From: an uncultured bacterium
GTDB lineage: Bacteria > Oederibacteriota > Muellerivitia > Muellerivitales > Muellerivitaceae
NCBI GenBank assembly: GCA_964525605.1
Contig: CAZGKT010000005.1
Span: forward strand, 9,122-73,121
Direction: 5' to 3'
Length of the DNA stretch: 64,000 bases
This document shows, in pieces, positions 5,918-27,355 of this stretch. The notes beneath the pieces were generated by a model that searched no databases, was not told where the DNA came from, and worked only from the letters and a program-made list of their open reading frames with translations. Numbering within the stretch: the stretch's first letter is position 1; each line of letters begins with the position of its first letter. A program made the position numbers and the translations under genes.

Positions 5918-5978
5918 ATAAGTAGATTCCACACGACTGAGACCCCCTTAGTAAAAGGGGGCTTATTCGGACTTCTGT

Positions 5979-8710: not shown

Positions 8711-8882
8711 TTAGTGAGTGCACGTGTTAGGAATCCGAACGGGTAAATTGGAGAACCGGACGGACTGAAGAAAAAGGATGGAGAAGTAAAAAGAGGAAGA
8801 CGCCTCCGATGTGAGAGACGGGGGTTGGTCGGGAGATGGATTCCTCGAAATTTACCCTGAGCGGGGAAAGGTGGGTTTTGAT

Positions 8883-10421
8883 ATGAAAACGAATAGGCTG
8901 AAAAAAATAATCGCGAGGGGGATGCCTCTATTCCTTTTCCTGGCGATGGCCTGGACGGGGTTGATCGGGAAGTCGTGGGCGGATCCTGCTGCTACGCCGG
9001 CGGCTACTCCTGCTGCGACCGAGGCGGCAACGCCGGCGGGGCTGCAGGGCTTTATGAACGATTATGACTTCACCTGGGTGAACGGTAACACCCATGAGAA
9101 AGATTTTCCCATGGCGGGAAAAGTCTTCTCGCCGGAACTGCTTTTTGACACGAATTACGCCTATCAATTTACCAATCCGAACGACCATATGATCAACGGG
9201 TCAACGGCCATGGCCATGGGCAATGAAGTGGAAGTTGAGCATGTCGGATTCGGGGGCGATTTCACCCCAGATCCACACGTTCATGCCCGACTCATGACCG
9301 AATTCGGCATGTACGCTAACCAGGTGCCAAGAAACGACGAAACCCCGGCGCGTGGAACTTGGAACATCATGCAAGGAACTCAGTTTCTCACTGAGGCCTA
9401 CGGCGGTATCCACCTTGATATCCCTGGCACGAATGGTATGAACATTGAAATGGGCCAATTCCCATCATATGTCGGCCTTTTCAGCTTTTATAACTCGGAA
9501 AACTGGTGCTACCAGGCTTCCTACGTTTCTTCCAACACACCCTGGTTTTTCACAGGAATGCGCATCCAGTTCTTCCCCAGTGATGCTTTGAAGATCGAGC
9601 CCTGGATCATCAACGGCTGGCAAACCTATGGTACGTTCGACAGCGGACTGGGTGGATCAGGGGTAAATCTTGGCTTTGAACTCCGCTGGGCGCCCAGTGC
9701 TGATTTGGTTGTGATTTCGAACAATTATGCGGGTCCGGATACGCCTGATTCACCTAATTGCAACCGGTACCACACGGATGACAGCGTTCTCTACAAGTAT
9801 TTGGACGATCCAAAATCGAACGGGATCGATAAGATGGCCTTTTCCATTACGGCCGACGCAGGTTTTCAACAAGGACCTATGTTCATTGGAAATACTGGGG
9901 CTCCTTTCGCCCTCAATTCGGGTCAGATCATTCCGACAGGTGGCGGATTTGTTAACGTCGCCGCCAATGGTCCCAACGCCGAACGCTTCTTGGGAGCCAT
10001 GATGTACGATCGGACTTGGTTTGATCACGATCACTGGGCCTTTACCTTCGGTGGCGGTTTCATGGACAACCCAGGACGCTACTTGGCGCTTATTCCGTCG
10101 ATTGATGGAGATTCGGCCCAGAACTATTCAAACGATCCTGCTGCAAACGCCGCATTTACGGAGAGCCCGGGCTTGCCTTGGACTTGCTGGGATTACGATT
10201 TCGGCTTCCAATACATGCCAACCGAATACTTGACCTTTGACCTGGAATACACGCATCGCTTTTCAACGATCAATTACTTCAACGGTCCGGGCGGGGAAAC
10301 TTCTTCGGATGGATGGCAAGCGGGAGCTGGCACAGGGTCCCAACAAGTCAGCGGGGGCTATACACCTAACCTCGTGCAATTCGAAGACGTCATCGTCGGC
10401 TCTATCATGGTGCACATTTAA
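8883..10421 (+). CDS. Putative outer-membrane beta-barrel porin
   Basis: Signal peptide, then a Pro/Ala/Thr linker (PAATPAATPAAT) and a long Gly/aromatic-rich beta-strand region. GGAAAGGTGG ribosome-binding site before the ATG at 8883. Confidence 0.55.
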   Translation: MKTNRLKKIIARGMPLFLFLAMAWTGLIGKSWADPAATPAATPAATEAATPAGLQGFMNDYDFTWVNGNTHEKDFPMAGKVFSPELLFDTNYAYQFTNPNDHMINGSTAMAMGNEVEVEHVGFGGDFTPDPHVHARLMTEFGMYANQVPRNDETPARGTWNIMQGTQFLTEAYGGIHLDIPGTNGMNIEMGQFPSYVGLFSFYNSENWCYQASYVSSNTPWFFTGMRIQFFPSDALKIEPWIINGWQTYGTFDSGLGGSGVNLGFELRWAPSADLVVISNNYAGPDTPDSPNCNRYHTDDSVLYKYLDDPKSNGIDKMAFSITADAGFQQGPMFIGNTGAPFALNSGQIIPTGGGFVNVAANGPNAERFLGAMMYDRTWFDHDHWAFTFGGGFMDNPGRYLALIPSIDGDSAQNYSNDPAANAAFTESPGLPWTCWDYDFGFQYMPTEYLTFDLEYTHRFSTINYFNGPGGETSSDGWQAGAGTGSQQVSGGYTPNLVQFEDVIVGSIMVHI

Positions 10422-10556: not shown

Positions 10557-10609
10557 GAGGTGCTAAAATGGACCCACAAATTGAAGCGGCACCGAAGAGA
10601 GTATTCAAG

Positions 10610-11305
10610 ATGACGAATAAATATTTGGTCTTAATGATTGAAGATGAAAAGCCGATTCGCCGTTTTTTAAAACCCTATTTGGAAAATCATGATTTCAAAG
10701 TGGTTGAGGCGGAAACCGCCCATGAAGGCCTGGCCCTCGCTTCTTCCCATAAACCGGATCTCATTCTTTTGGATTTGGGGCTTCCGGATTTGGACGGCTT
10801 GGTCGTTCTTCGCCGTTTGCGTGAATGGACCCAGGTTCCCGTTATTATCCTGACGGCCCGGGGTAAAGAAAAAGAAAAGGTAGAGGGGTTGGACGCGGGT
10901 GCGGATGATTATCTCGCCAAGCCCTTTGATGTTGAAGAATTGATGGCCCGCATACGCGTGGCCTTGAAACACTTGAATAACATGAAACAGCAGGGCAATG
11001 AACCGGTCTTTGAAACCGCCGATTTCAAAGTGGATTTATCGGCTCGAATTGTTACGGTTCATGGCAAAGAAGTCCATTTGACGCCGAATGAATACAACCT
11101 TTTGGCTTTGCTTATCCGTCACGCGGGTAAAGTAGTGACGCAAAAATTGATTATTGGTGAAATTTGGGGTCCCGGCGGGGATGAACAGGGACGAAATCTG
11201 CGTCTTTATATTCATCAACTGCGGCAAAAATTGGAATCGGACCCGGCCCTTCCCCAGTATCTTCTCACCGAACCGGGTGTGGGTTACCGGCTGAAATACG
11301 AATAA
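10610..11305 (+). CDS. kdpE: OmpR-family response regulator KdpE
   Basis: REC domain with phospho-acceptor context 'DLILLDLGLPDLDG' plus a winged-helix C-terminus 'LTEPGVGYRL'. Located immediately upstream of kdpD. Confidence 0.85.
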   Translation: MTNKYLVLMIEDEKPIRRFLKPYLENHDFKVVEAETAHEGLALASSHKPDLILLDLGLPDLDGLVVLRRLREWTQVPVIILTARGKEKEKVEGLDAGADDYLAKPFDVEELMARIRVALKHLNNMKQQGNEPVFETADFKVDLSARIVTVHGKEVHLTPNEYNLLALLIRHAGKVVTQKLIIGEIWGPGGDEQGRNLRLYIHQLRQKLESDPALPQYLLTEPGVGYRLKYE

Positions 11306-11421
11306 ATCCTGTTCTTGACCCCTTAATAATTAATTAAATCTTGCCCGAGCCCCGGTTTTTCCAATCATCCATTGAATTATTTGCGGTTAAATGGGTATGG
11401 CTGACCATCAAAGATGGGATC

Positions 11422-14127
11422 GATATGAAAGATAAACGCCCGAATCCGGATGAACTACTCAAAAAATTTAACGAAGACGAAAAAGCGCGTCACCGTGGAA
11501 AACTAAAGATCTTTTTCGGGGCCTATCCCGGCGTGGGGAAAACTTACACCATGCTGGAAGCCGCCCGCCTTAAAAAGGCTGAAGGGGTGGATGTAGCTGT
11601 TGGAATTTTGGATACCCACGACAGCAAGGAAACGGAAGCCCTCCTCGCGGGCATGGATATCATCCCACCTTTGGAAATATGGCAAAGGGGTGTGCTTTTA
11701 AAAGAATTGGATTTGGATCAGGCATTGAAGCGGCGCCCCGGCCTCCTGATCGTGGATCATTTGGCTCATTTGAACGGGGAGGGTATCCGCCACCTGAAAC
11801 GCTGGCAAGACGTGGAAGAGATACTTGAAAGTGGAATCGACGTCTATACCACCCTCAATGTTCAGCAACTCGAAAGTCTGCACGATATCGTCATCCGGCT
11901 CACCGATATTATGGTTTGGGAGACGGTTCCCGATTCGGTTCTTGAAAACGCGGATGAACTGGAACTGGTGGACCTGCCCCCTAGCGACCTTTTGGAACGC
12001 CTGGATAAGGACCTGATCTTCATACCCGAGGCTCATCAACCGGCCAATTGGCATTTTTTCAAGCGGGCCAACCTGGACGCTTTCCGCGAGATGGCCCTAC
12101 GGATCACGACCGATTGGGTGAACGATCAGGTCCAGATTCATCACCGGGGCATGGCCAGTTCCCAGGCCTGGCCCATTCGAGAACGACTGCTGGTCTGTAT
12201 CAGCGCCAGTCCCTCCTCCGCCAAATTGGTCCGAGCCGCCCACCGCATGGCCAAAAGCATGCGGGCCGACTGGACGGCGGTTTACGTGGAAGCGTCTTTT
12301 CACTCGGAAAACAAAGAAAAAGATTTGGAAGCCATGGCCATCCAACATTTAAGGCTGGCCGAGAGGCTGGGAGCGGAAACGGCCATCCTGACGGGATCGG
12401 ACTTCGTGGATGAAGTTCTGACCTACGCCCGGGATAAAAGCGTGACCCGGATATTAGTGGGCTCCCCGTCCAAGCGATCCTGGAGACATCTATTTTCAGG
12501 CTCCAGGGTCAACCGGTTATTACGGGAGTGCAGGGATATTGAGGTGGCCGTGACACCCGGGGATTCGGACGAACTGGCGCCCAAGGTGGTGGGAAAGTCG
12601 CCCTTGAAGTGGGATTGGAAAGGTTTCGGATTCACCTTTTTGGAAATGGCGCTTTGCACGGCGTTCAACCAAATCATTTTTATGTATATGGACCCCTCCA
12701 GCCAGACGCTCATTTACGTCAACCAAATCATGGTCTATCTCCTGGGCGTAGCGGTTTTGTCCGCTTCCCAGGGTGTATGGCCTTGTGTGGCGGCCTGTAT
12801 CCTGAACGTCCTTGCCTTCGACTTTTTTTTCGTCCCGCCCCTGTATGAATTTGACGTTTATGACAGCCGATATATCACCATTTTCTTGGTCATGCTGACC
12901 GTGGGCCTCATCATCAGCAACTTGACGGTACGCATGAAAACCCAAACCCGGCTCTCTCGCTTAAGGGAGCGCCGAACGGAAGCCCTTTACGGCCTTTCCC
13001 GGGAACTGGCGTCTACCCGTGGTACGAACGAACTTTTAAACGCGGCGGTGAAGCATATTTCCGAGGTCTTCGAAAGTTCGGTTACCGCTTTTCTACCCAA
13101 TGAACAAAATCGGCTTGAGGCGCGATGCTCCACCACCGCGGACCCGCATCTTTCATCCAAGGAAATGGGGGTAGCCCAGTGGGCCTATGACTTGGGGCAA
13201 ATGGCGGGCAAGGGGACGGATACCCTTCCGGACGCGCAGGAGCTTTATGTTCCCCTTTTGGCCGGGGGCGAGCCAGTGGGAGCGTTGGGCGTGAAATCTC
13301 ATTTCCCGGACAGGCTTTTTATTCCGGAGCAGCTCCACCTCCTGGAAGCTTTCGCTCACCAGACCGCCCTGGCGGTTTTAGGGGACAAACTGGCCGAGGA
13401 AAAGCAGGAAGCCCAGTTGCAGATGGAAACGGAAAAATTACGAAGTTCCCTCTTGAGCTCCGTATCGCATGATTTGCGCACCCCCCTGGCCACCATCAAG
13501 GGAGCCATTGGAGGATTGTTGGAGTCGGGCGAGGCGATGGGGGCTGCGACCCGGCGGGATTTTCTGGAAAACGTCCACGAAGAAACCGGCCGTTTGGAGA
13601 GGCTGGTGACCAACCTGTTGGAAATGACCCAGATCGAAGCGGGCACGATCCAACCCAAAAAGGAACCCAACGACCCACTCGATGTCATCGGCTCCGCGGT
13701 AGCCCGGGTTCGCAAGCGGATGAACGGAAGGAAATTGGAAATGAATGTTCCGCCCGACCTTCCCCTGGTTCCCATGGATGGTCTCCTCATCGGCCAAGTG
13801 GTGACCAATCTTTTGGACAATGCCTTGAAATATACCCCGGAAGGAAGTCCCCTCGAAATCACGTCTTGGATCGATAAAAATATATGGGTGGTCCAGGTGG
13901 CGGACCGGGGTCCGGGAGTGCCCGCACAAGACCTGTTGCATTTATTCGACAAGTTTTATCGGGGCCCGCAGAAGGAAAAAAAGAGTGGCGCCGGATTGGG
14001 GTTGGCCATTTGTAAGGGCATGGTCGATATCCATCGGGGGACATTGACGGCTGAAAACCGGCCGGAGGGTGGAATGATTTTCCGCTTGGCTTTGCCGATT
14101 GAACCGGAAGTTATAAAAGGTTTGTGA
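11422..14127 (+). CDS. kdpD: Sensor histidine kinase KdpD
   Basis: N-terminal KdpD domain 'RGKLKIFFGAYPGVGKTYTML', a USP-like region, four TM helices, a GAF-like region, the H-box 'SSVSHDLRTPLATI' and an ATPase domain. Start set at MKDKRP by comparison with E. coli KdpD. Confidence 0.85.
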   Translation, partial: DMKDKRPNPDELLKKFNEDEKARHRGKLKIFFGAYPGVGKTYTMLEAARLKKAEGVDVAVGILDTHDSKETEALLAGMDIIPPLEIWQRGVLLKELDLDQALKRRPGLLIVDHLAHLNGEGIRHLKRWQDVEEILESGIDVYTTLNVQQLESLHDIVIRLTDIMVWETVPDSVLENADELELVDLPPSDLLERLDKDLIFIPEAHQPANWHFFKRANLDAFREMALRITTDWVNDQVQIHHRGMASSQAWPIRERLLVCISASPSSAKLVRAAHRMAKSMRADWTAVYVEASFHSENKEKDLEAMAIQHLRLAERLGAETAILTGSDFVDEVLTYARDKSVTRILVGSPSKRSWRHLFSGSRVNRLLRECRDIEVAVTPGDSDELAPKVVGKSPLKWDWKGFGFTFLEMALCTAFNQIIFMYMDPSSQTLIYVNQIMVYLLGVAVLSASQGVWPCVAACILNVLAFDFFFVPPLYEFDVYDSRYITIFLVMLTVGLIISNLTVRMKTQTRLSRLRERRTEALYGLSRELASTRGTNELLNAAVKHISEVFESSVTAFLPNEQNRLEARCSTTADPHLSSKEMGVAQWAYDLGQMAGKGTDTLPDAQELYVPLLAGGEPVGALGVKSHFPDRLFIPEQLHLLEAFAHQTALAVLGDKLAEEKQEAQLQMETEKLRSSLLSSVSHDLRTPLATIKGAIGGLLESGEAMGAATRRDFLENVHEETGRLERLVTNLLEMTQIEAGTIQPKKEPNDPLDVIGSAVARVRKRMNGRKLEMNVPPDLPLVPMDGLLIGQVVTNLLDNALKYTPEGSPLEITSWIDKNIWVVQVADRGPGVPAQDLLHLFDKFYRGPQKEKKSGAGLGLAICKGMVDIHRGTLTAENRPEGGMIFRLALPIEPEVIKGL

Positions 14128-15371
14128 TCGCCATTAATCCATTCAAGGGATATTTCGTGAAAAAAATATTTAAAATTCAAATCGCACTTATCCTCTTCAT
14201 GCTCTGGGAAGTGAGCCAGGCCCATTCCCAAGAAATCGCCCATGTTCAATTTACTTTGGACAGTCAAAACAAAGAAGTTCATATCACCTATGACTTTTAT
14301 GATTCCCAGGACAGGGCCGAGGATGTATTGATTCAAGCATCAAATGATCAGGGTAAAACATGGGACATCCAGCCTTCCCCCCAATCTCTTCAAGGAGACT
14401 TGCATGGGGTGAGGCCGGGCAAGGGAAAAAGCATTACCTGGAAGGCCGGGGACGATTTCCAGGCCTTCTCGGCCGAATTGTTCCAGGTGAGGCTCCTCTT
14501 GGTGCAAGTGGTGGCCTCCGCCTCCTCCGCCTCCACCCTCCTGGACCCAACGGCGGAAGCCACCAAGGAAGCCGGCGCGGAGGAAAAGGAAAACCAACTT
14601 GAGCTGGATCAAACGAAAAATCTTCCCCAGTCAATCACCGGCAAGGATGGAGCGGCCATGGTGTTGATTCCAGCGGGATATTTCAGGATGGGCTCTCCGA
14701 AAGACAAGGGAGAAAAGGACGAGAAACCCGCGCACCAGGTTTGGGTTAGTTCTTTTTACATGGATCAAACATTGGTAACGTTCGACCGCTATGACAAATT
14801 TTGCGACGCCACGGGTCGGCCAAAACCATCGGATGGCTTTGTTCTTTACAACAAGCCCTCACCTCATTGGGGAAGGGGTAGCCATCCTGTCTTAAACCTG
14901 ACCTGGAAGGCGGCGGACGCCTATTGCAAATGGGCCGGGGGGAGACTTCCCACGGAAGCTGAATGGGAAAAGGCCGTCCGGGGGGGAACTGAATCGACTT
15001 ATTTTTGGGGAAATGATGGGGGACAGGCCTCCCAATACGCCTGGTATGAGGGAAATTCCTACTATAAAACCTGGCCGGTGGGTCAGTTAAAACCTAACCC
15101 CTTCGGCCTTTATGACGCCGTGGGAGATCTATGGGAATGGGTGTCCGATTGGTACAGCGCTGATTATTACGTCTCAAGCCCGGGACGAAATCCGACAGGA
15201 CCGGTCGAGGGCAAATCAAAAGTTTTACGGGGCGGATCTTTTGCCAACGGCGATGACTGTCTGCAGTCCGCTCACCGGAGTAATTGGGATCCCGAAAAAG
15301 AGGATGGACAGGAACTGATGGGACATTTACATGAACATGGCTGTCGCTGTGTTCAGGAAGCAGTTCAATAA
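14124..15371 (+). CDS. Secreted FGE-sulfatase (SUMF1/formylglycine-generating-enzyme-like) domain protein
   Basis: C-terminal half shows FGE-domain hallmarks ('RLPTEAEWEKAVRGG', 'GLYDAVGDLWEWVSDWY', 'VLRGGSF'). N-terminal ~150 aa are unique. The ATG overlaps the kdpD stop (ATGA); a GTG at 14157 is an alternative start. Confidence 0.6.
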   Translation: MIAINPFKGYFVKKIFKIQIALILFMLWEVSQAHSQEIAHVQFTLDSQNKEVHITYDFYDSQDRAEDVLIQASNDQGKTWDIQPSPQSLQGDLHGVRPGKGKSITWKAGDDFQAFSAELFQVRLLLVQVVASASSASTLLDPTAEATKEAGAEEKENQLELDQTKNLPQSITGKDGAAMVLIPAGYFRMGSPKDKGEKDEKPAHQVWVSSFYMDQTLVTFDRYDKFCDATGRPKPSDGFVLYNKPSPHWGRGSHPVLNLTWKAADAYCKWAGGRLPTEAEWEKAVRGGTESTYFWGNDGGQASQYAWYEGNSYYKTWPVGQLKPNPFGLYDAVGDLWEWVSDWYSADYYVSSPGRNPTGPVEGKSKVLRGGSFANGDDCLQSAHRSNWDPEKEDGQELMGHLHEHGCRCVQEAVQ

Positions 15372-15477: not shown

Positions 15478-15565
15478 CCTAAACACTTTCCTAACGATGT
15501 TCTAACTCCTTCCTAACAAACGCCCCCGCAACAAATCCGGAACACCATCTAACAGCATCCTAATC
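15478..15565. promoter_or_regulatory. Cluster of CCTAAC/TCTAAC direct repeats at 11-12 bp spacing
   Basis: CCTAAAC at 15478, CCTAAC at 15490, TCTAAC at 15501 and CCTAAC at 15512, plus TCTAACAGCA at 15549 and CCTAAT at 15559. Lies upstream of the 15788 gene and the P-II array. Confidence 0.5.
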
Positions 15566-15787
15566 GGCTCTCGCCGTATATTTACGTTGCAAGAAGGGAA
15601 TTGGTTCCCGAAAAAATTTCCAAATAGCGGAACCGAAGAAAGAGAGGGGATTCCATGATTCAACTCATCGTACTCATGCTGGGTTTAGTTCTCGCCACAA
15701 CCGGTTTGTCCGGGTTCATTCTTTTGAAAAAGGAGGAAATGTTTTGAATTAAAAATTTTTTTAAAATTGCTGAAAAGGAGAAACAAG

Positions 15788-16222
15788 ATGAAAACTTTAA
15801 AAAGCACTTCAACCTTAGCGTTGGCCTTAATACTAGGAACGACCTCACTAAGTTTCGCGGGAAATCACCCGGCTTTGACCTATCCAGGAGCAGCCCTGGC
15901 CTCGGCCAATGCGCCGGTTCAAATTGAAGAAGTGACCCCATGGCACAAAGGGGCCATCAAATACGCTTCAGGTATCATGATGATCGGCGCTTGGTACCAG
16001 GCCTGTCCGGTGAGCCACATGATTCTTAATTCCAAGCACGAGGCCGAAGTGACCTTGTCCAATGGAAAAAAGATCATGCTCGCCTCAGCGGCTTTAAAGG
16101 ATGAGGTGGAAGCGAACCTTGGTAAATACGCACCCTTTATGTATGGAGCTTCGGCGATCAGCGGCGATTCTTCGGCTCGATTTGCCCAAGCCAGCCTTGG
16201 GAGCGTGTCGGTTGTGAAGTGA
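15788..16222 (+). CDS. Hypothetical secreted protein
   Basis: Signal peptide MKTLKSTSTLALALILGTTSLSFA. No recognisable family. Confidence 0.4.
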   Translation: MKTLKSTSTLALALILGTTSLSFAGNHPALTYPGAALASANAPVQIEEVTPWHKGAIKYASGIMMIGAWYQACPVSHMILNSKHEAEVTLSNGKKIMLASAALKDEVEANLGKYAPFMYGASAISGDSSARFAQASLGSVSVVK

Positions 16223-16261: not shown

Positions 16262-16663
16262 ATGAAAAAGATAGAGGCCATTATCCGGCCCGTTAAATTT
16301 GACGAAGTGAAGGCGGCTTTAGCCGAAGCCGGCTACGGGGGAGTTACGGTCACGGAAGTCGAAGGCCATGGCACCCAAAAAGGCTTCACGCAGGTTTGGC
16401 GCGGCCGTGAGTACAAGGTGGAACTGCTACCCAAGATCAAACTGGAAATTGTCTGTCCCGCCAAGGACGCGGCAAAGATAGTCCGTGCCATTATGAGAAG
16501 CGCCCAAACGGGCCAAGTGGGGGACGGAAAGATTTTCGTTTATGAAATCGCCGAAGCCTACCGGATCAGCAGCGGGGAAGAAGGAGAAAGGGCCCTTTCC
16601 GAAAACCAGGTTCCGAACCCAAAACCCGGTCGTCTGGGTGAAATTCTTTTTAGCAGGGCTTAG
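16262..16663 (+). CDS. glnB: Nitrogen regulatory protein P-II (GlnB/GlnK-like, canonical T-loop)
   Basis: 'MKKIEAIIRP', T-loop 'RGREYKVELLPKIKLE' with the conserved Tyr, and B-loop 'TGQVGDGKIFV'. Confidence 0.8.
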   Translation: MKKIEAIIRPVKFDEVKAALAEAGYGGVTVTEVEGHGTQKGFTQVWRGREYKVELLPKIKLEIVCPAKDAAKIVRAIMRSAQTGQVGDGKIFVYEIAEAYRISSGEEGERALSENQVPNPKPGRLGEILFSRA

Positions 16664-16699
16664 ATCGGCTGAACCAAAAATTGTCCGCATAAGGGGGAG

Positions 16700-16731
16700 G
16701 CCGACCTGAAAAGGCCGGCCTTTTTTTTTGA
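16700..16731 (+). terminator. Rho-independent terminator
   Basis: Hairpin AGGCCG...CGGCCT followed by a T9 run. Confidence 0.6.
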
Positions 16732-16753
16732 AACAGCCTGAGGGGAGCACGTC

Positions 16754-17140
16754 ATGTTAAAAATTGAAGCGATAATTCGGCCCGAAAAATTAGAACCAGT
16801 TTGCGCTAGATTACGGCGGGTAGGTTACCCGGGAATGATGGTGATGGAACTGGAAGGTCATGGCCGCCAAGGGGGCCTGCATTCTCATTGGCCCCAGGGG
16901 ATGAGGGTCGATTTTCTCCCCAAAGTACGGATCGAAATGGTGGTGGAAAACAGGGATCAAGATAAGGTGATTCGCGCCATCCTTTTGGGTGCGCGGACCG
17001 GTGAAGAAGGGGACGGAAAGATTTTCATCACCGAGATCAAGGAAGCCATCCGGATCCGCACGGGCGAGAAGGGAATCAATGCCCTTTCGATGGAGAAGGG
17101 GTCTGTCCGTGAAAAGGTGGTCGTTTCCAGCCATTCTTAG
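16754..17140 (+). CDS. P-II-like signal-transduction protein, divergent T-loop
   Basis: 'MLKIEAIIRP', 'EGDGKIFITEI' and 'IRIRTGE' keep the P-II fold, but the T-loop 'HSHWPQGMRVDFLPKV' has no Tyr. Confidence 0.7.
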   Translation: MLKIEAIIRPEKLEPVCARLRRVGYPGMMVMELEGHGRQGGLHSHWPQGMRVDFLPKVRIEMVVENRDQDKVIRAILLGARTGEEGDGKIFITEIKEAIRIRTGEKGINALSMEKGSVREKVVVSSHS

Positions 17141-17209
17141 AACGCTTAAATATTCAAAGCTAAGCCGGGTATTTCTTTAAATTTAATTACGGAAAAAGGG
17201 ATTTCAATT

Positions 17210-17545
17210 ATGAAACGTATTGAAGCGATTGTTCGGCCGAATTCCTTAAGGGCGGTTTTGGCCAGTTTGGAAGCCGTCGGCTATGCCGGAGTGACAGTCC
17301 TGGAGGCCCAAGGCCATGGGACGCAAAAAGGCGCAACCGATATTTACCGAAGTCAAAGTGTGGAGGGGCTCCTTCCCAAGTTAGTGGTTTCGATGGTGGT
17401 GGAAGACAATTTGGTGGAAAAGACCATCGATTCTATCGTCAAGGCTGCCCGCAAGGGCGAAATTGGGGATGGAAAAATATTTATCTATTCGGTCGTGGAT
17501 GCCGTGCGGATCCGCACTGGAGACAGAGGCAAAGCCGCCCTCTGA
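17210..17545 (+). CDS. P-II-like signal-transduction protein, divergent T-loop
   Basis: 'MKRIEAIVRP', 'GEIGDGKIFIYSV' and 'VRIRTGD'. The T-loop 'ATDIYRSQSVEGLLPKL' is non-canonical. Confidence 0.7.
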   Translation: MKRIEAIVRPNSLRAVLASLEAVGYAGVTVLEAQGHGTQKGATDIYRSQSVEGLLPKLVVSMVVEDNLVEKTIDSIVKAARKGEIGDGKIFIYSVVDAVRIRTGDRGKAAL

Positions 17546-17724
17546 GAAGTCGCTCTCCAGAAAAACATTTCAACATCTTGCGCCGTTTGTTCTGTCGTTT
17601 CCTCATTTCCCATTTTGGGCCGTTAATCTGAAATTAACATTTGTTAATTGTTGCTAACACTTTCTAAACAATTCCGGCTTTCTTCTAACAGCAACTTAAT
17701 GCGCTCCTGTCGTACACTTCCGCC

Positions 17725-18369
17725 ATGAAGAATTCACATTTGTTAATTTTAATGCGCGAAACGAAACTTTCGCCTGAGCAGATGGCGAAACGCCTGGGAA
17801 TTTCCAATATGACTATCCGGCGCTGGATGAAAAATGCGCCGGGGAAAACAATCCCGGCGATCTACGAAAAAACCGTTTGGGACGCAGTTTACCAGATGGT
17901 CGCGGAGGGGATGCTTTTACCCGAATCGGCGTTCGTGCGGAAAGCCTTGAGGGAAAGCCAAAGGCTTTACTTCCGTGCCGCCATGAAGAGCCTGGGCTTC
18001 AAGGCTTCGGGTCGGAGGACGGAGCGGTTCTCGATGGATTCCATCATGAAGGGGCTGTCCGAGATCGGCGCCGCGCCCGGGCACCGGCTCGAAGTGGAGA
18101 AAAAACAAAAGAAGATTTCCTCCTTCGTAAACCTGGGAAGCGATTGGAAAGAGAGGATTTCCACCTTGAAGAGGGTGGTATCCAGTAAGCATTTGACTGC
18201 CGGGGAAAAGCTGGTGGCCTATGGGGCGTTGTTTTACCTCTTGTGCCCCTTTGACCTGATCCCGGACAGCGTTCCGGTTTTCGGAATGATGGACGATTAC
18301 TGCGTTTTGGGCTTAGCGGCGGAACACTACGGTAAACATAAAAAATTCATGGTCGGGGTTGAGTCATGA
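17725..18369 (+). CDS. HTH plus DUF1232 (YkvA-like) membrane-associated protein
   Basis: N-terminal HTH 'LSPEQMAKRLGISNMTIRRW'. C-terminal DUF1232-like 'LFYLLCPFDLIPDSVPVFGMMDD'. Confidence 0.5.
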   Translation: MKNSHLLILMRETKLSPEQMAKRLGISNMTIRRWMKNAPGKTIPAIYEKTVWDAVYQMVAEGMLLPESAFVRKALRESQRLYFRAAMKSLGFKASGRRTERFSMDSIMKGLSEIGAAPGHRLEVEKKQKKISSFVNLGSDWKERISTLKRVVSSKHLTAGEKLVAYGALFYLLCPFDLIPDSVPVFGMMDDYCVLGLAAEHYGKHKKFMVGVES

Positions 18370-19808
18370 AAAAAATACTCTCTACATACATTCTGGCGGT
18401 GTGGGGCCTGTCACTTGTGGCGAGGGCCCAAACCCTCACCCTGGAACAGGCCATCCGGACAACCTGGGAGAATTCTTCTCAATTGCAGGCCCAAAAGAAC
18501 CTGGCGGGCATTTTTTCGGACGATACCTGGAGGCGGTTCGTGCCCGAGGAGCCCAGCTTTTCCTATACGGATGATTACAGCCAGACCTTTTATACCCTTG
18601 GCCTTTCCCTCACCTACCCCTTCCCCTTGAAGAGCATCTTCATGAACCAGCTGGACTGCGCCAACGCGGAACAACAAAGGTTCGAGTTAACCGCTCAAAA
18701 ATACGACCTGGCCGTCGCCATCGCCCAGGCCTATATGACCGGCGCTACGGCACAGGCCATGATCGAGTTCCAGAAACAGAACGTCCAGGACCTGGAGACC
18801 ATCACCGAGGCTATCCGCCTCCAATACGTCCACGGCCAATCCAACCAGACCCAGAAAATCAGCGCCGAATTGCAGTTGACCCAGGCGCAAAGGGATCTCA
18901 AAACCGCCCAGGACCAGCTGACGACGGCCGTGGAACTGTACGCCCGGCTGATGAAGATTCCCTCGGGCCAGGTGACCGGTTTCGAACTGCCGGAGGATGT
19001 TTCCCCCGACATCATCCGTGAATTGGGCGGCAAAACCTCGGGCCAATTGCGCGACAGGGCCAATGTGGACGTGGGGGAAGCCACCCGGGCCACCGGCTTT
19101 TGGAACCAGTTTCCGGACCCGACCTTCAGCTTTACCAAGGATTACTACGACCCGAACAACGCCATCGCCCCCTACAACGACAGTCCCACCCAGCAGCCCA
19201 ACGACTATAACCTCACGGTTTCCTTCACCCTTCCCATCCTCTTCCCCTTCCGCGAGGTGGCGGAAGCCCAGCGAAGCGAGAACCAGGGGATTGTGGCCCG
19301 GGAACAGGCCCGGCTCCAGCTTTTGCAGGACAACTCGGCCCAGGAGGCGGGCGTCCTGGACTACAAGCGAAGCAAGGCGAGGTTCCACCAACTGCATGAC
19401 CGGGACCTGCTCCTGGCCGAAACCATGAGGCAGGCAGCGGTGGAGGCTTATAAAAGAGGCCAACTACATTTTGCCGACCTAATGCTGGCCCGGCAGACCT
19501 ATGCCAGCCTGAAAACCGAGGATATTCAGATCCGCCAGGAAATCGTCAACGCCCATCTGGCCGGCTTGAGGGAACTGGGCAATTCGGACGAAGTTTCAAC
19601 GACGAATGAATCCAACTTGGCACCGGCGAGTTCTTCTCCTACACCCACTTCTACCCCGGATCATCTTTTAGGATCACCCGATTCGGCGGTGGCGGCTCCG
19701 GTTGTTGAGAACGATCAAAAAGTTTTGAGTGGAAATGAAACCTCCATCCCCCTACCCACGCCCACCGTGGGAGCTGGAAACGGGGATGGGGAAAAAGAAG
19801 CGAAATAA
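18366..19808 (+). CDS. Outer-membrane efflux protein (TolC/OMF family)
   Basis: Signal peptide, then 'LTLEQAI' and long coiled-coil repeats typical of the OMF family. Overlaps the upstream gene by 4 nt and precedes the membrane-fusion and RND genes. Confidence 0.75.
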   Translation: MKKILSTYILAVWGLSLVARAQTLTLEQAIRTTWENSSQLQAQKNLAGIFSDDTWRRFVPEEPSFSYTDDYSQTFYTLGLSLTYPFPLKSIFMNQLDCANAEQQRFELTAQKYDLAVAIAQAYMTGATAQAMIEFQKQNVQDLETITEAIRLQYVHGQSNQTQKISAELQLTQAQRDLKTAQDQLTTAVELYARLMKIPSGQVTGFELPEDVSPDIIRELGGKTSGQLRDRANVDVGEATRATGFWNQFPDPTFSFTKDYYDPNNAIAPYNDSPTQQPNDYNLTVSFTLPILFPFREVAEAQRSENQGIVAREQARLQLLQDNSAQEAGVLDYKRSKARFHQLHDRDLLLAETMRQAAVEAYKRGQLHFADLMLARQTYASLKTEDIQIRQEIVNAHLAGLRELGNSDEVSTTNESNLAPASSSPTPTSTPDHLLGSPDSAVAAPVVENDQKVLSGNETSIPLPTPTVGAGNGDGEKEAK

Positions 19809-19831
19809 GACTTTTGAGGAGAGGTGCTGAG

Positions 19832-20785
19832 ATGAAAACATTCCAAATGCTTTTGCTGATGGGAACGCTAACTGTCGGGGCGAGGGCCTGGGCCAACGAC
19901 TTTCAATGGACAAAGGTGGTAGCGGGCGAGGAGATCACCGGAATCCGAACGACGGGAAAGATCATCCCCCAGGCGGGGGCCCTAAAAAGCCAGTCGGCCA
20001 ATACCCAGGGGCGGATTATCTCGGTTCTCAAGAAGGAAGGGGACTCCGTCGAGGTGGGCGACCCGCTTTTCCTGGTCAATGATTCGGAATGCGAGGCACT
20101 GGCCGAGGAAAAGCTCTTGGCCCAGAAAAATGGCGTTCAGGATCTTATCGACGCGGCCAACCAGCGTGAAAAGGAACTGGGCGTCAAAGTGGTATCCGGA
20201 CAGTACGAGATCGTTTCCCTCTTCAAGGGCGTTATTCTCCAGAACCTGGTCAGCGCCGGCACGATTTATAGCCAAGGCCAACAGTTGTCCAATATCCTGG
20301 ATATGCGCAAACTCACAATCGAGTTGGATTTTGCGGAAAAATATGTTTCAGACCTCCGCCGGGGTCAGAAGGTCACCTTCCAACTAGCATCCGACTCCCA
20401 GACGTCCTATAACTCCACCATCGAGACGATCGTACCCACGATCGATCCCAACCAACGCACGACTATCGTGCGTTTGCGACCGGTGGTGCTTCCTGCCACG
20501 GTCAACCTGTCCGAGCTGGTCTATGGCACCGTGCAGACTGGCGCGAGCCAGCCCATTCTCAAGGTTCCTTCCACATCCCTGGTCTTCAGTCACGATAAGC
20601 AATACGTCATGAAGGGGGACGAGAATAACCCCGTGGCGGTGGAAGTCCAGGTGGTCAACGAGACGGACGAATTAAGTTCCGTGAGGCCGGTGAACGCAGG
20701 CGAATTGAAGGAAGGGGATAACGTGGCCAGCGAAGGAGGAATCTTCCTCTGGGCAAAGGTCAATGGCATCTACGGGGGCGGCTGA
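19832..20785 (+). CDS. RND efflux membrane-fusion (periplasmic adaptor) protein
   Basis: Biotinyl/lipoyl-like hairpin 'GRIISVLKKEGDSVEVGDPLFLV' and a beta-barrel C-terminus. GAGGAGAGGTG ribosome-binding site upstream. Confidence 0.7.
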   Translation: MKTFQMLLLMGTLTVGARAWANDFQWTKVVAGEEITGIRTTGKIIPQAGALKSQSANTQGRIISVLKKEGDSVEVGDPLFLVNDSECEALAEEKLLAQKNGVQDLIDAANQREKELGVKVVSGQYEIVSLFKGVILQNLVSAGTIYSQGQQLSNILDMRKLTIELDFAEKYVSDLRRGQKVTFQLASDSQTSYNSTIETIVPTIDPNQRTTIVRLRPVVLPATVNLSELVYGTVQTGASQPILKVPSTSLVFSHDKQYVMKGDENNPVAVEVQVVNETDELSSVRPVNAGELKEGDNVASEGGIFLWAKVNGIYGGG

Positions 20786-20852: not shown

Positions 20853-23800
20853 ATGGTAAAACTCATATTGAAATGGATGCAGTTCCAAAGGGAAGCCTTC
20901 GTATTGTTCCTTTTCCTCCTGATGGGCATCGTGGGTTACGGGGCTTACGTGGCCTTCAACAGTGAGATCATGGCCTTCCCCGAGTTCACCAACGTGCAAT
21001 TAAACGTGCAGACCCAATGGCCCGGCCACGCGGCGGAGGAAATCGAGCGATTGGTCACCATCCCCCTGGAAACGGCCACCCGCAGCGTGCCAGGGGTCAT
21101 CAATTCCACCTCTCTTTCCGAGTTCGGATTGAGCGTCATCCTCCTCACCTTTTCTGACGATACCCCGAATTGGAAGGCCCGAAGCGACACGGTGCAGTAC
21201 ATGTCCAACGCCAACATGCCCAGCGGAGTGACGCCCGGTCTTTCAACCGATACCACTCCCTTAGGGCAGATCATGCGTTATTCGCTGGAGGGCAACTTGC
21301 CCCCGGACGAGATGCGCATGATCCAAGATTGGCAGATCACGCGCTATCTGGCTACTGTCCCTGGAGTATCCGATGTGGAAGCCTTTGGGGGGCCCACCCG
21401 CACGGTGGAGATCAAAATCGACATCCCGAGGATGGAATCCCTGGGGCTTACCATCTCCCAAATTGCCCAGAATCTGGGCGCCAACCATCAAAACGCGGGC
21501 GGCGATTTCATTACCCACGGCGATGAAATGTATATCGTGCGGTCCATCGGGCTTTACCAGGATCCCATGGACCTGGAAAACGCCGTCATCGCGACCCAAG
21601 GGAACACCCCTATCCGCATCAAGGATATCGGGTCGGTGGTCATGAGCCACCATGTGCGCCTGGGGCAGACTGGACGGGACCATGATGATGACGTAGTGCG
21701 GGCCATGGTCAACCTACGGGTCGGCGCCAATACCATGCAGACCCTGGCCGGGTTGCATAAGAAAATCGACGAACTAAACAACCATCTATTGCCCAAGGGA
21801 TGCAAGATCAACATCTATTATGACCGGGGAGACCTGATCCGCCGCAGCAGCCGGACGGTCTTCCACAACGTCATTTTTGGAATCGTCCTGGTCTGTACCC
21901 TTTTGATCCTGGGTTTCGGGATCCAGTATTGGGCCATGTCCTCAGGGGTCGCCCTCATCATCCCCTTTGCCTTGTTGGTGGCCTTCGTGGGATTGCATAT
22001 ATGCGGTTACAACCCCAATCTGATTTCCCTTGGGGCTGTGGACTTCGGCATCATCGTGGAAACTGCGGTCTTTGGGGCCGAGGCACTAGCCGTCTCCCTA
22101 GCACGGCAAAAAAGGAAGGACGACGAGGCGAACGCCTTAGCCCTTTCGGAGGTCCTGGGTCCAGCCCTACTTTGCGCATTTCTTCTACTAATCGCATTCA
22201 TTCCCATCCTGAGCCTTCAGCGCATTGAAGGCCGCATTTTCCGGCCCCTGGGGATCACTTTGGTTTCGGCGCTCGTGGGGGGACAATTGGGAGCTTTTAT
22301 TTTCCTTCCCCTGGCCGCCTCCTGGGCGCCTATTGGACCCAAGCCCACCAAAGCAGACGATGTTTTCCATTGGATACTAGAACGTTGCAACCGGGTCATG
22401 CTTTGGTTTAACGGATTCAAGCACATCGGCTGGATCGCGGGCGCCATCATGGCGGCCCTCCTGATCCTCATTAATTGGGGCATGGGTACCGAATTCCTGC
22501 CCACCATGAACGAGGGCAACCTTTGGATCCGGGTGAGCGCACCGCCCACCATTTCCCGGGAAAAGGCTGTGCAGTTGGCCCACGATATTCGCGAAAGAAT
22601 GCTTCGGGTCAAGGAAGTCAAATCGGTGGTTTCCCAGCTGGGGAGACCCGATGACGGGAGCGACATCAGCGGTTTTGATACGCTAGAGTTTCAGGTGGAT
22701 CTGGGCGATCCGGAAGATTGGAAGAGCGCGGATTCCATCGAAGGTTTCGTGAAACTCATCCGAGAACAGGAAAAGGATATCGAAGGCTGCGACTTCTACT
22801 ATTCCCAATATATTAAAGACAACGTGGACGAGGCTATCACGGGGGTCATGGGTGAACTAGCCGTCAAAATCCACGGCCCGGATTTACGTGTCCTGCAGAG
22901 CTTGGGGGATCAGTTTGAAACAATCATAGCTAAAACGCCCGGGGCAGTTGATGTGGGCGAAGAGGACATACTCCAACAGCCCGAGCTGCAGTATGTGATG
23001 GATCGGGATAAGATGGACAGTTACGGCATCCAGGTTTCCCAGGCGGAGGACGTTCTCTCATCGGCTCTCTCCGGTAAATGGGCTGCTCAAATGGTGGATC
23101 CGCAGGGGCGCTATGTAGATATTATGGTGAAACCCCGGCTGCCCAGCCCGTTGAACCAAAACGTTTTGAATTCAATTCCTCTTTTGGCACCGGGCGGAGC
23201 GGAAATCCCCTTGGGTGAGGTGACCCAGGCCAAAGTGGTCGAAGGGATCTCGCATATTTACCGCGAGGAAGGAGACCGGCGCGTGGCCGCTAAGTGCTCG
23301 GTGAGGGGCAGGGCGGTCGTGGAATTCGTTAAGGAATGCGACGACCAGATCAAGAAGCAGGTCAAGCTTCCACCCAAGTACTGGTACTACTGGTCGGGAA
23401 CTTTTGAGAACGCTATTCGCGCCAGCCGGCAGTTGTCTATCATCGTGCCGATCTGCATCCTGGCCATGATTACCATTATGTACACCTGGTTTAAGGATTG
23501 GAGGCTCTTGGCCATCTTGCTTTGGGAAATTCCATTCGCCACTCTGGGCGGTTTGGCGGCCCTGCGTATGGCCGGATTGAACCTGAGTATTTCGGCGGCG
23601 GCGGGAGGCATCATCCGCATCGGGGTTTCCTTCCTGACGGGCATGATGATCATCTCGGCCTTCGTCAAGACCCGGGACGCCTCCAAGGCCCTGATGGAAA
23701 AGGGAAGAAGCATTCTGATTTCGAACGGGGTGGCCATTATCGGATTGCTACCTGCGGCTTTGTCTCACGCCATCGGTTCGGAAACCGCGCGGCCCTTCGC

Positions 23801-23900
23801 AGTGGCCATTTTGGGGGGGTTGGCGGCTTCGATGACGCTGAGCTTGACCTTGCTACCGGTGTTTTTGAAGAGGATCGAGCACTTCTACAAGCATAAATAA
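20853..23900 (+). CDS. RND efflux transporter, CzcA/CusA-like (heavy-metal-efflux type)
   Basis: 1015 aa with 12 TM helices, two large periplasmic loops and AcrB/CzcA family motifs throughout. Follows the OMF and adaptor genes. Confidence 0.85.
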   Translation: MVKLILKWMQFQREAFVLFLFLLMGIVGYGAYVAFNSEIMAFPEFTNVQLNVQTQWPGHAAEEIERLVTIPLETATRSVPGVINSTSLSEFGLSVILLTFSDDTPNWKARSDTVQYMSNANMPSGVTPGLSTDTTPLGQIMRYSLEGNLPPDEMRMIQDWQITRYLATVPGVSDVEAFGGPTRTVEIKIDIPRMESLGLTISQIAQNLGANHQNAGGDFITHGDEMYIVRSIGLYQDPMDLENAVIATQGNTPIRIKDIGSVVMSHHVRLGQTGRDHDDDVVRAMVNLRVGANTMQTLAGLHKKIDELNNHLLPKGCKINIYYDRGDLIRRSSRTVFHNVIFGIVLVCTLLILGFGIQYWAMSSGVALIIPFALLVAFVGLHICGYNPNLISLGAVDFGIIVETAVFGAEALAVSLARQKRKDDEANALALSEVLGPALLCAFLLLIAFIPILSLQRIEGRIFRPLGITLVSALVGGQLGAFIFLPLAASWAPIGPKPTKADDVFHWILERCNRVMLWFNGFKHIGWIAGAIMAALLILINWGMGTEFLPTMNEGNLWIRVSAPPTISREKAVQLAHDIRERMLRVKEVKSVVSQLGRPDDGSDISGFDTLEFQVDLGDPEDWKSADSIEGFVKLIREQEKDIEGCDFYYSQYIKDNVDEAITGVMGELAVKIHGPDLRVLQSLGDQFETIIAKTPGAVDVGEEDILQQPELQYVMDRDKMDSYGIQVSQAEDVLSSALSGKWAAQMVDPQGRYVDIMVKPRLPSPLNQNVLNSIPLLAPGGAEIPLGEVTQAKVVEGISHIYREEGDRRVAAKCSVRGRAVVEFVKECDDQIKKQVKLPPKYWYYWSGTFENAIRASRQLSIIVPICILAMITIMYTWFKDWRLLAILLWEIPFATLGGLAALRMAGLNLSISAAAGGIIRIGVSFLTGMMIISAFVKTRDASKALMEKGRSILISNGVAIIGLLPAALSHAIGSETARPFAVAILGGLAASMTLSLTLLPVFLKRIEHFYKHK

Positions 23901-23957: not shown

Positions 23958-24206
23958 TTAGGCGAGGGTTTTTTCGGGCCTTTGGGAGAGGATGCCGACG
24001 ACCACCCACAGGTCGAAGAGCACCATCATGGAGCAATAGATGGTCGTGACCCAGGCGAAGATCGCGTGCTGATCCCACATTTCAGTCCAGGCTTGTGAGA
24101 CCGTATAGTCGGGCTGTTGGGAAAGGCTCATGAATCCAGCCGAGACCATAGCAATTCCGGCTACCGTCAGCAGGCCCATCACCGTGAGTAATTGAGATTT
24201 TTTCAT
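23958..24206 (-). CDS. Small membrane protein
   Basis: 82 aa with two predicted TM helices. Confidence 0.35.
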   Translation of the reverse strand: MKKSQLLTVMGLLTVAGIAMVSAGFMSLSQQPDYTVSQAWTEMWDQHAIFAWVTTIYCSMMVLFDLWVVVGILSQRPEKTLA

Positions 24207-24321: not shown

Positions 24322-24350
24322 GTTAGGGAACCGTTAGGAAGTTGTTAGGA
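24322..24350 (+). promoter_or_regulatory. Three GTTAGG direct repeats at exact 11-bp spacing
   Basis: TGTTAGGgaac-CGTTAGGaagt-TGTTAGGattt. This is OmpR/PhoB-style helical phasing. It sits directly beside the orphan kdpE-like gene. Confidence 0.55.
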
Positions 24351-24404: not shown

Positions 24405-25154
24405 TCACAATTTGGGTTGTCGTGAGCGCTCGGTCGCTTTCGGTTTGGGCGGAAGGAATTCATTCTTAAGCCGGTAGCCCACGCCGGGTTCCGTCAGAAT
24501 GTATTGGGGAAGGGAGGGGTCTTCTTCAATTTTTTGACGCAGTTGATGGATAAAAAGTCTCAGTGAACTCGCTTGTTCTTCTTCTTCGATCCCCCATATC
24601 TCCCGGGTGATCATCTTTTGGGTGACCACTTTTCCCGCGTGACGGATCAGGATGATCAAGAGTTTGTATTCGTTTTGGGTTAGGTGCACTTCCTGATTAC
24701 GGACCGTCACGGTCCGGCTGGCTAAATCCACTTTGAAATCGGGTGTCTCAAAGCAGGGATCATTTCTCTGGGTTTTGAGGTGGGACTCGTGGCGTAGGGC
24801 CACTCGAATACGTGCCAAAAGTTCGCCCGTATCAAAGGGTTTGGTGAGGTAATCGTCGGCGCCCGCGTCCAGACCCTTTACCTTGTCCCTTTCTTGGTCC
24901 CGACAGGTCAGGATGATGATAGGGCACTGGGTCCATTCGCGAAGCCTCCCTAGGACCACTAGGCCGTCCAGATCCGGTAGTTCCAGATCCAGAAGAATCA
25001 GGTCGGGCTTATGGGAGGAAGCCAAGGCCATGCCCTCTTCGGCGTTATCCGCCTCAATGACCTTGAAATCGTGGCTTTCTAGAAAGGGTTTCAGGAAACG
25101 GCGGATGGGCTTTTCATCTTCAATAATAAGAACCACATATTTATTTATCGTCAT
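24405..25154 (-). CDS. OmpR-family response regulator, KdpE paralog with no adjacent kinase
   Basis: Roughly 70% identical to KdpE (10610-11305) over its full length ('MTINKYVVLIIEDEKPIRRFLKPFLESHDFKV...'). AGGTGA ribosome-binding site before the ATG. Confidence 0.8.
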   Translation of the reverse strand: MTINKYVVLIIEDEKPIRRFLKPFLESHDFKVIEADNAEEGMALASSHKPDLILLDLELPDLDGLVVLGRLREWTQCPIIILTCRDQERDKVKGLDAGADDYLTKPFDTGELLARIRVALRHESHLKTQRNDPCFETPDFKVDLASRTVTVRNQEVHLTQNEYKLLIILIRHAGKVVTQKMITREIWGIEEEEQASSLRLFIHQLRQKIEEDPSLPQYILTEPGVGYRLKNEFLPPKPKATERSRQPKL

Positions 25155-27301: not shown

Positions 27302-27317
27302 TGGCACAACAGTTGCT
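27302..27317 (+). promoter_or_regulatory. Sigma-54 -24/-12 promoter
   Basis: TGGCAC-aacag-TTGCt, about 40 nt upstream of the permease ATG. Preceded by CTAAC repeats at 27244 and 27255. Confidence 0.55.
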
Positions 27318-27355
27318 TTATGACCTCCTGCCAATTCAAACAAAAGGAGGAAGTT

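Follow-up and report, generated by a model that had tools for sequence, protein, structure and literature searches.

In a 64,000-nucleotide stretch of DNA from an uncultured bacterium (GenBank assembly GCA_964525605.1, contig CAZGKT010000005.1, positions 9,122 to 73,121 of the forward strand; hereafter the window), three different P-II genes, P1, P2 and P3, lie in tandem, and the trio is apparently induced along with a cation efflux pump encoded next to it and not with the usual ammonium transporter. The arrangement resembles a known, still uncharacterised kind, the PII-NG genes that accompany czc pumps, and varies it by having three P-II types. The apparent descent of two of the genes, P1 and P3, from GlnK, the place of the trio in a conserved gene block and a promoter box shared with the pump operon lead us to propose that P-II proteins sensing energy, carbon and nitrogen have been recruited into a co-regulated cation-transport regulon, as in the PII-NG/czc systems, a proposal that we regard as about evenly balanced. 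An earlier note on this DNA, made from its letters and open reading frames, had drawn attention to the three genes and their surroundings, and its description of the locus as a whole proved accurate.

Three P-II types in a conserved gene block

All three genes of the trio, which the earlier note had placed in tandem, are open reading frames on the forward strand: P1 at 16262–16663 (133 amino acids), P2 at 16754–17140 (128 amino acids) and P3 at 17210–17545 (111 amino acids). Each gives a full-length match to Pfam PF00543, with E-values of 3.6e-30, 1.3e-27 and 1.9e-25 for P1, P2 and P3, respectively (105, 97 and 90 bits against a cutoff of 25, profile positions 1–102 covered), and this is the sole Pfam match of each at E<0.01. 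Their best matches in the PDB are GlnB/GlnK structures (E-values from 1e-27 to 1e-38), and their scores against the NCBIfam equivalogs for GlnB (NF008111; 133, 89 and 100 bits, cutoff 202) and GlnK (NF007946; 106, 82 and 86 bits, cutoff 181) fall well below the cutoffs. The three proteins share 45–47% identity with one another and are each about equally far from E. coli GlnB. The reading frames are intact and preceded by ribosome-binding sites, and dN/dS is 0.03–0.13 for each gene (measured against four orthologs, with synonymous sites saturated). As the T-loop is moreover conserved within each of the P1, P2 and P3 groups, all three genes can be regarded as functional, encoding three different GlnB/GlnK-type P-II sensors under purifying selection. 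The P-II-like families PstA/DarA, CutA and SbtB were considered as identities and rejected, PF00543 being the only Pfam match and no SbtA-type gene being seen. What the locus has in common with SbtB–SbtA and with transporter–P-II fusions is a P-II module genetically tied to a membrane transporter (an APC permease in the window itself carries a fused P-II domain); it differs from SbtB, CutA and PstA in that the trio are canonical PF00543 members.

The alignment bears out that one gene has a GlnB-like T-loop with its tyrosine and that the other two have divergent ones, as had been read from the translations. Residues are numbered by alignment with E. coli GlnB. The T-loop of P1 has the canonical length and keeps Arg47 and Tyr51 (GHGTQKGFTQVWRGREYKVELLPK); those of P2 (GHGRQGGLHSHWPQGMRVDFLPK, with the short motif GLHSHWP) and P3 (GHGTQKGATDIYRSQSVEGLLPK, short motif YRSQSVEGLLPK) are one residue shorter and lack Tyr51, with K40 replaced by G in P2 and Arg47 kept in P3. 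All three proteins have Gln39, Lys58 and the B-loop GDGKIF, which established P-II structures and biochemistry show to be binding residues for ATP/ADP and Mg-ATP/2-oxoglutarate. The full set of Gly37, Gln39, Lys58, GDGKIF, Arg101 and Arg103 is found in P2 and P3, and P1 has all of it but Arg103, which is replaced by a Ser (YRISSGE) that is invariant throughout the P1 group. The PROSITE-type patterns for P-II proteins are Y-[KR]-G-[AS]-[AE]-Y for uridylylation and [ST]-x3-G-[DY]-G-[KR]-[IV]-[FW]-[LIVM] for the C-terminal region. The former matches none of the three proteins (P1 reads WRGREY); the latter matches P1 and P2, and P3 deviates at its first position, where the B-loop begins with Lys in place of Ser/Thr. 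Both P1 and P2 carry odd C-terminal tails, that of P1 being non-conserved.

The trio recurs in ten further loci, so that the arrangement is more than chance. The order of the block is BBP2 porin, KdpE-like response regulator, KdpD-like kinase, FGE-sulfatase-domain protein, small peptide, secreted protein, P1, P2, P3, HTH/DUF1232 protein, outer-membrane efflux protein (OEP), membrane-fusion protein (MFP) and RND permease. It is seen in 11 loci of a single sublineage, namely the window and L009, L010, L011 (on the same contig as L004), L017, L018 and L091–L095, and persists down to 65% identity of P2. The pump genes OEP–MFP–RND start 180 nt and one gene downstream of P3. An ammonium transporter, glnA or nif partner had been reported missing, and this is confirmed: Pfam scans of the other long open reading frames in the window gave no match for amt, glnA, glnD or nif, tblastn found neither Amt nor GlnA in its 64 kb, and no amt lies within 10 kb of the trio in those related loci that extend so far.

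The shared promoter box and the likeness to PII-NG

The units of this region have in common a direct repeat, CTAAC-N6-CTAAY, with a period of 11 bp. With up to one mismatch allowed, it occurs at 14 sites in the window against an expectation of 2.67 ± 1.58, a number reached by none of 100 shuffles. All sites but one (57134) lie between 8.4 and 27.3 kb, most of those in promoter regions. The box stands in front of the porin/two-component operon (8414–8461, forward strand, with sites at 8414 and 8446, plus 8578 on the reverse strand) and of the unit formed by the peptide, secreted-protein and P-II genes, whose promoter has three (15491–15564, forward strand), among them CTAACAGCATCCTAAT followed by GTATATTT. 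The operon of DUF1232 and the pump has the box CTAACAGCAACTTAAT (17685–17700, forward strand), the start codon of DUF1232 lying 40 nt downstream. Further boxes precede an 82-amino-acid open reading frame (24322–24348, reverse strand; three direct repeats with 11-bp spacing, TCCTAAC, TTCCTAAC and CCCTAAC) and a permease–P-II fusion gene (CTAACTTTTTCCTAAC, 27244–27259, forward strand, 28 nt upstream of the gene).

The box is conserved at orthologous promoters in seven loci (L009, L010, L011, L017, L093, L094 and L095). Its core, CTAACAGCAAC-CTAAY, is found some 240 nt ahead of the gene for the secreted protein in all of these except L093, and before the DUF1232 start codon at 40 nt in L009, L011, L093, L094 and L095 and at 69–101 nt in L010 and L017. 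The three-repeat arrangement downstream of the RND gene is also present in L093 and L095, and a box identical to that of the permease–P-II fusion precedes its ortholog in L019. A simple promoter and terminator scan of 15.3–18.4 kb gave nothing above chance and missed the hairpin that follows P1. An 11-bp period is typical of the direct repeats recognised by OmpR-family regulators, and the distribution of the box together with its conservation suggests one regulon under such a regulator. The KdpE-like regulator of the block (10568–11305) is the first candidate for the protein that binds it, because it is present, beside the KdpD-like kinase, in every block that reaches that far.

Genes of the PII-NG or ‘PII-New’ group (Sant'Anna et al. 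2009) occur with czcABC, and their function is not established (PMC7726332, PMC11617674, PMC4316997). PII-New genes have been linked to heavy-metal efflux pumps (PMC11617674), and GSU2134, a PII-NG gene of Geobacter sulfurreducens, stands first in czcABC and is co-induced with it (PMC7726332). That the trio resembles PII-NG, as had been suggested, gains support from the P-II genes beside a czc-like RND pump in 11 loci and from the promoter box common to both operons. The linkage of a P-II gene with czc-like RND efflux genes, by which PII-NG is recognised, is thus present. The likeness consists of PF00543 genes conserved next to a CzcCBA-type RND operon, of small exported proteins encoded just upstream, and of signs of co-regulation with the pump, here a shared promoter box and in Geobacter co-induction by cobalt. 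The differences are that three different P-II genes are present here and one there, that an HTH/DUF1232 gene and a separate promoter lie here between the P-II genes and the pump, and that P1 and P3 have amt-linked orthologs and look GlnK-derived. The taxonomic range is not matched either, the carriers of the trio being labelled candidate division FCPU426, whereas PII-NG is found in Proteobacteria and some Bacteroidetes. Compared by gene linkage, PII-NG is the best functional analogy and the closest known arrangement, and the locus could be described as functionally of the PII-NG/czc kind, apparently built from GlnK-type ancestors.

Among the inspected contexts of 104 plasmid records, obtained by tblastn with P1 against 72,556 plasmids, none had a P-II gene beside a czc operon; those contexts were glnB, glnK–amt, nifI and the P-II gene of an Acinetobacter catabolic cluster. 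This last gene lies on Acinetobacter plasmids of 85–310 kb (L006, L089 and L090), in a cluster with sarcosine oxidase, dimethylamine monooxygenase, purU and folD genes and with no amt or glnA nearby.

If the trio does belong to a co-regulated cation-transport regulon, its units would be switched on together upon a cation signal by a regulator of the OmpR family, for which the adjacent KdpE-like protein is the likeliest candidate. P-II trimers, possibly mixed, would then use their differing T-loops to adjust one or several of the components induced with them, in response to ATP/ADP and 2-oxoglutarate. Candidate targets are the trimeric RND pump, the permease–P-II fusion and the KdpD-like kinase; action on any of them would be post-translational, and in the case of the kinase it would parallel that of GlnB on NtrB. 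P3 may in addition continue to serve an Amt whose gene lies elsewhere in the genome. The P-II-regulated transporters known so far act as trimers (PMC10710835).

Apparent GlnK ancestry and rival explanations

To examine the evolutionary relations of the P-II proteins, 109 representative P-II domains drawn from all retrieved loci were placed in a neighbour-joining tree (100 bootstraps). P1, P2 and P3 each form a clade (80, 89 and 99% bootstrap, respectively), as do the P-II domains fused to permeases (95%) and the free P-II proteins encoded directly after these fusions (94%). The P3 clade includes an amt-linked member from the related FCPU426 genome L001, where, at a separate site, a second amt gene is followed by this P3-type gene with the same short T-loop (ESYRGQSVEGLLPK). 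In the same genome two P1-type genes come directly after Amt, in the order Amt–P1a–P1b–CitMHS_2–BBP2–P2–GGACT, and the 560-amino-acid gene upstream of P-II is a clear Ammonium_transp (E-value 4e-103). Because the P3-type gene and the P1-type pair of L001 each directly follow Ammonium_transp, P1 and P3 appear to be of GlnK descent, P3 representing the amt-linked GlnK type of the phylum and P1 a second GlnK-derived type, which kept Arg47 and Tyr51 and lost Arg103; both would be GlnK-lineage proteins relocated from amt. P2, by its distribution, appears to be a P-II type specific to FCPU426. Genes of this type (65–83% identity) are limited to metagenome-assembled genomes titled FCPU426 and two titled ‘proteobacterium’ with the same synteny (L009–L019; one genome per GTDB species), and the remaining matches (46–57% identity) are ordinary amt–glnK or glnB–glnA pairs, mainly of Acidobacteria. 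On this ground the window is attributed to an FCPU426 bacterium living in peat or soil. In a search of 5.8 billion proteins the P2 family comprised about 96 clusters at scores of at least 153 bits, followed by a gap down to canonical P-II proteins of 112 amino acids at 131 bits or less. The trio accordingly consists of old paralogs brought together and is not the product of a fresh duplication.

In FCPU426 genomes that lack the trio (L012–L016, L001 and L019), the P2-type gene repeatedly has a BBP2 porin gene before it and a GGACT (gamma-glutamyl cyclotransferase-like) gene after it. Besides the L001 order, these ‘type B’ loci read BBP2–(P1)–P2–(BBP2)–GGACT or P1...P2–CitMHS_2. The type-B locus L002 contains a permease–P-II fusion, glnA and a second permease in the opposite direction, together with a 148-amino-acid gene between P1 and P2 that is unrelated to the secreted protein of the window.

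These relatives are the ground of the main rival explanation, according to which the trio are ordinary nitrogen regulators (P1 and P3 as GlnK, P2 as GlnB-like) with Amt, glutamine synthetase or an NtrB-like kinase as targets elsewhere in the genome, their place by the pump being an inherited order without meaning. Orthologs of P3 and P1 directly follow true amt genes in L001, all three proteins are closest to canonical GlnB/GlnK, Arg47 is retained in P1 and P3, and the type-B loci place P1 and P2 near glnA, amt and GGACT without an RND pump. The earlier note had named a tight grouping with ordinary GlnB/GlnK and an amtB just outside the window as what would speak against its own view; the trio is indeed closest to GlnB/GlnK and P1 and P3 have amt-linked orthologs in L001, but no amt occurs in the 64 kb analysed. 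Compared with canonical GlnK–AmtB and GlnB systems, the fold family is the same, the residues for ATP/ADP and 2-oxoglutarate are conserved, and Arg47 (P1 and P3), Tyr51 (P1) and the amt-following orthologs of P1 and P3 are further points of likeness. The differences are the missing amt and glnA, the scores below the NCBIfam equivalog cutoffs, the short T-loops of P2 and P3 without Tyr51, the loss of Arg103 in P1, and the want of a match to the PROSITE-type uridylylation pattern. A historical accident is also at odds with the order kept in 11 loci despite P2 identities down to 65% and saturated synonymous sites, with the box shared with the pump operon and conserved in seven loci, and with the absence of amt from the surroundings of the trio. 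Conserved order and shared box together argue against ordinary nitrogen regulators left there by accident, and we consider this explanation a serious one that is nevertheless rather unlikely.

Several observations weigh, on the other hand, against the regulon that we propose. The deeper nodes of the P-II tree are without resolution, and FCPU426 orthologs of all three genes elsewhere adjoin amt, CitMHS_2, BBP2, GGACT or glnA without RND genes, which fits ordinary nitrogen signalling. The pump operon has its own promoter box, and the next gene after P3 in both L017 and L018 encodes a response regulator, with a gap of about 5 kb between P3 and DUF1232 in L017. Strict co-transcription of the trio with the pump is for these reasons unlikely, and given the extra gene in L017 and L018 and the gap in L017, the trio is linked more closely with the genes on its upstream side than with the pump. 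A G+C-rich hairpin followed by nine T (16697–16729, forward strand), which could be a terminator or an attenuator, may separate the transcription of P1 from that of P2 and P3, or may lower the expression of P2 and P3 relative to P1; a similar hairpin and T-run is found in L010 and L094 and is absent in L011. The RND permease scores just below the curated CusA/CzcA cutoff (TIGR00914; 637 bits, cutoff 701) and has a variant TM4 motif, DFGIIVETAVFGAE, where CzcA-type proteins have DFG..DGA..VEN, so that it may transport something other than a classical heavy metal. The KdpE-like regulator is a candidate binder of the box, and we infer all of the P-II targets from gene order and the shared DNA motif.

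A further-reaching explanation, which we think improbable, is that P-II here serves as a layer of cation homeostasis and not of nitrogen control. The KdpD/KdpE-like pair would induce the three P-II genes, the RND pump and the permease–P-II fusion, and the P-II proteins would act directly on both transporters. Free P-II subunits would either join the fused domain in mixed trimers or dock trimer-on-trimer onto the RND pump, and a flux of K+, NH4+ or metal would in this way be coupled to ATP/ADP and 2-oxoglutarate.

The fusion itself is encoded at 27287–29326 (forward strand) and consists, according to Pfam and to the PDB matches of its P-II part, of an APC-family permease (AA_permease) with a C-terminal P-II domain. 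It is the fourth P-II module of the region, and the count of four within 13 kb given by the earlier note holds (span 13.1 kb). Its family is large, with more than 120 clusters at 56% identity or more, all having both domains, and the fused P-II domain lacks Gln39. Literature searches brought up descriptions neither of an APC-permease–P-II fusion nor of canonical P-II genes associated with KdpDE. Within FCPU426, the fusion and P1/P2 genes were seen together in three loci (the window, L001 and L002), at a distance of 2–10 kb, and in other lineages (L121–L124, L126, L129, L134, L146, L149, L150, L166 and L167) one or two free P-II genes come directly after the fusion. The metagenome contigs with the fusion were selected for carrying P-II genes, which biases such counts; four fusion contexts (L175–L178) were sampled regardless of P-II neighbours. 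A P-II gene follows the fusion in three of the four, after a gap of 11 nt in L177 and L178 and as a fragment of 77 amino acids 70 nt downstream in L176. One of the four fusions lies beside kdpABC–kdpDE, and that of L178 also faces amt–glnK–glnD, such positions beside kdpABC–kdpDE or amt–glnK–glnD/glnA being recurrent.

From this it could be argued that the free P-II proteins work mainly with the fusion, completing a mixed trimer or docking onto it and thereby gating the APC transporter. The free genes after fusions in other lineages and in three of the four sampled contexts favour such a partnership, as do their own clade, which joins the P1 group in the tree, and the CTAAC box before the fusion in the window and in L019; having lost Gln39, the fused domain may also need partners to sense 2-oxoglutarate. 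The free genes of FCPU426, however, are not adjacent to the fusion, the grouping of P1 with the fusion-linked clade has only 11% bootstrap, and the larger metagenome set is biased as described, so that we hold a main role with the fusion to be unlikely.

Two explanations fared far worse. The earlier note had compared the two divergent genes with NifI-type paralogs, and tandem P-II genes with unlike T-loops are indeed the hallmark of a nifI1–nifI2 layout, which also offers a precedent for mixed P-II oligomers. Regulation of a nitrogenase or nitrogenase-like enzyme in the manner of NifI1/NifI2 is nevertheless effectively refuted by the sequence comparisons. The window holds no nif or nif-like genes, there are three P-II genes and not two, the best matches are GlnB/GlnK, for each of the three proteins the NifI chains of PDB 9p1x rank with the weakest of the PDB matches, and the Desulfovibrio NifI1/NifI2 pair (L171) falls outside the P1, P2 and P3 groups in the tree. 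That the genes are decaying duplicates with no separate function, for which only the divergence of the T-loops and the unusual tails of P1 and P2 speak, is likewise effectively refuted by the conservation data, namely the low dN/dS of each gene, the T-loop conserved inside each group, and the intact frames with their ribosome-binding sites.

Neighbouring genes and significance of the locus

The unknown secreted protein upstream of the trio and the HTH/DUF1232 gene and heavy-metal-type RND operon downstream, all of them named in the earlier note, agree with the Pfam and NCBIfam assignments. On the upstream side, the first gene of the operon (8811–10421, forward strand, as are all those that follow unless stated) encodes a BBP2 (OmpL-like) outer-membrane porin (PF07642, E-value 1e-29), syntenic in L009–L011, L017 and L095. 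The KdpE-like OmpR-family response regulator (10568–11305) has KdpE as its best NCBIfam match (259 bits, below the cutoff of 325). The KdpD-like sensor histidine kinase (11341–14127) has KdpD, Usp, DUF4118, GAF, HisKA and HATPase domains in Pfam and reaches 775 bits against NCBIfam KdpD, below the cutoff of 1123. The FGE-sulfatase-domain protein (14124–15371; PF03781, E-value 3e-53) overlaps the stop codon of the kinase by 4 bases with its start. An open reading frame for a hydrophobic peptide of 30 amino acids (MIQLIVLMLGLVLATTGLSGFILLKKEEMF, 15655–15747), without a Pfam match, has its own ribosome-binding site and is found at the same position in L009, L010, L011 and L017.

The secreted protein (sec151, 15788–16222) is an orphan of 144 amino acids with a signal peptide and no Pfam match, represented by only 17 clusters among 5.8 billion proteins. 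Its structure model is weak (pLDDT 53) and gave no significant match in Foldseek, the best non-significant ones being eL24 zinc-ribbon proteins. Distant members of the family keep CPV...SNGK..VCC.PCK...KY, and judging from the cysteine pattern of these members only, a degenerate YHS/TRASH-like domain is possible, with a hint of periplasmic metal-binding ancestry. In some relatives the spacer before P2 is filled by long GTCGACAG-type palindromes (L017 7394–7496, L092 1236–1326 and L016 9803–9990); in the window, L010 and L094 the terminator-like hairpin stands in their place.

Downstream of the trio, the first gene of the pump operon encodes an HTH and DUF1232 protein (17725–18369, by Pfam), whose stop codon overlaps the start of the TolC/CzcC-like OEP (18366–19808; PF02321). 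The CusB/CzcB-like MFP (19814–20785; Pfam HlyD_D23) has CzcB/NccB as its best NCBIfam match, below the cutoff, and is followed by the RND permease of the CusA/CzcA heavy-metal type (20853–23900; ACR_tran, E-value 5e-176). The 82-amino-acid open reading frame behind the three direct repeats (23958–24206, reverse strand) has two hydrophobic stretches that are predicted to span the membrane, and it runs convergently towards the RND gene end. A second KdpE-like response regulator (24405–25160, reverse strand) has no ortholog that was found by the pump in L009, L010, L011 and L093.

The wider surroundings of the trio have a theme of cation and nitrogen transport. The window begins with kdpB and kdpC and contains a CitMHS_2 transporter, and a homolog of the potassium/proton symporter KimA is encoded at 30142–32118 (reverse strand; PDB 6s3k, E-value 5e-59). 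A c-di-AMP riboswitch (32172–32330, reverse strand; Rfam RF00379, 71 bits) lies directly upstream of the KimA homolog and not of the P-II genes. The kdpBC genes (12–2159) are separated by 6.6 kb of unrelated genes from the KdpD/KdpE-like pair (10568–14127), and in a related genome two KdpD paralogs stand close together (L004, 1–64 on the reverse and 3984–6671 on the forward strand). On account of these two observations, the pair by the trio may not be the true kdp regulator. Further downstream, two large proteins (46450–50406, 1318 amino acids; 52714–56061, 1115 amino acids) have N-terminal TIR domains (ThsB-like) and may be defence-related.

Few signalling proteins are as widespread as P-II proteins, whose targets outside nitrogen control are largely obscure, and the pump-linked PII-NG class has been without an assigned function since its description in 2009. 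Were the ordinary nitrogen explanation true, FCPU426 would be using a GlnK with an unusual short T-loop that lacks Tyr51. The permease–P-II fusions make up a large, unstudied family, and as genes for potassium (kdp) and for ammonium (amt, glnA, glnD) both recur beside them, the homeostasis of potassium may be connected with that of nitrogen. The locus offers a compact, conserved test case, with three P-II types, a candidate regulator and DNA box (CTAACAGCAACCTAAT being the candidate for regulator binding), and three candidate targets nearby. If P-II does form a layer of cation homeostasis here, this would be the first mechanism for the PII-NG class and for the widespread module of a permease–P-II fusion plus free P-II.

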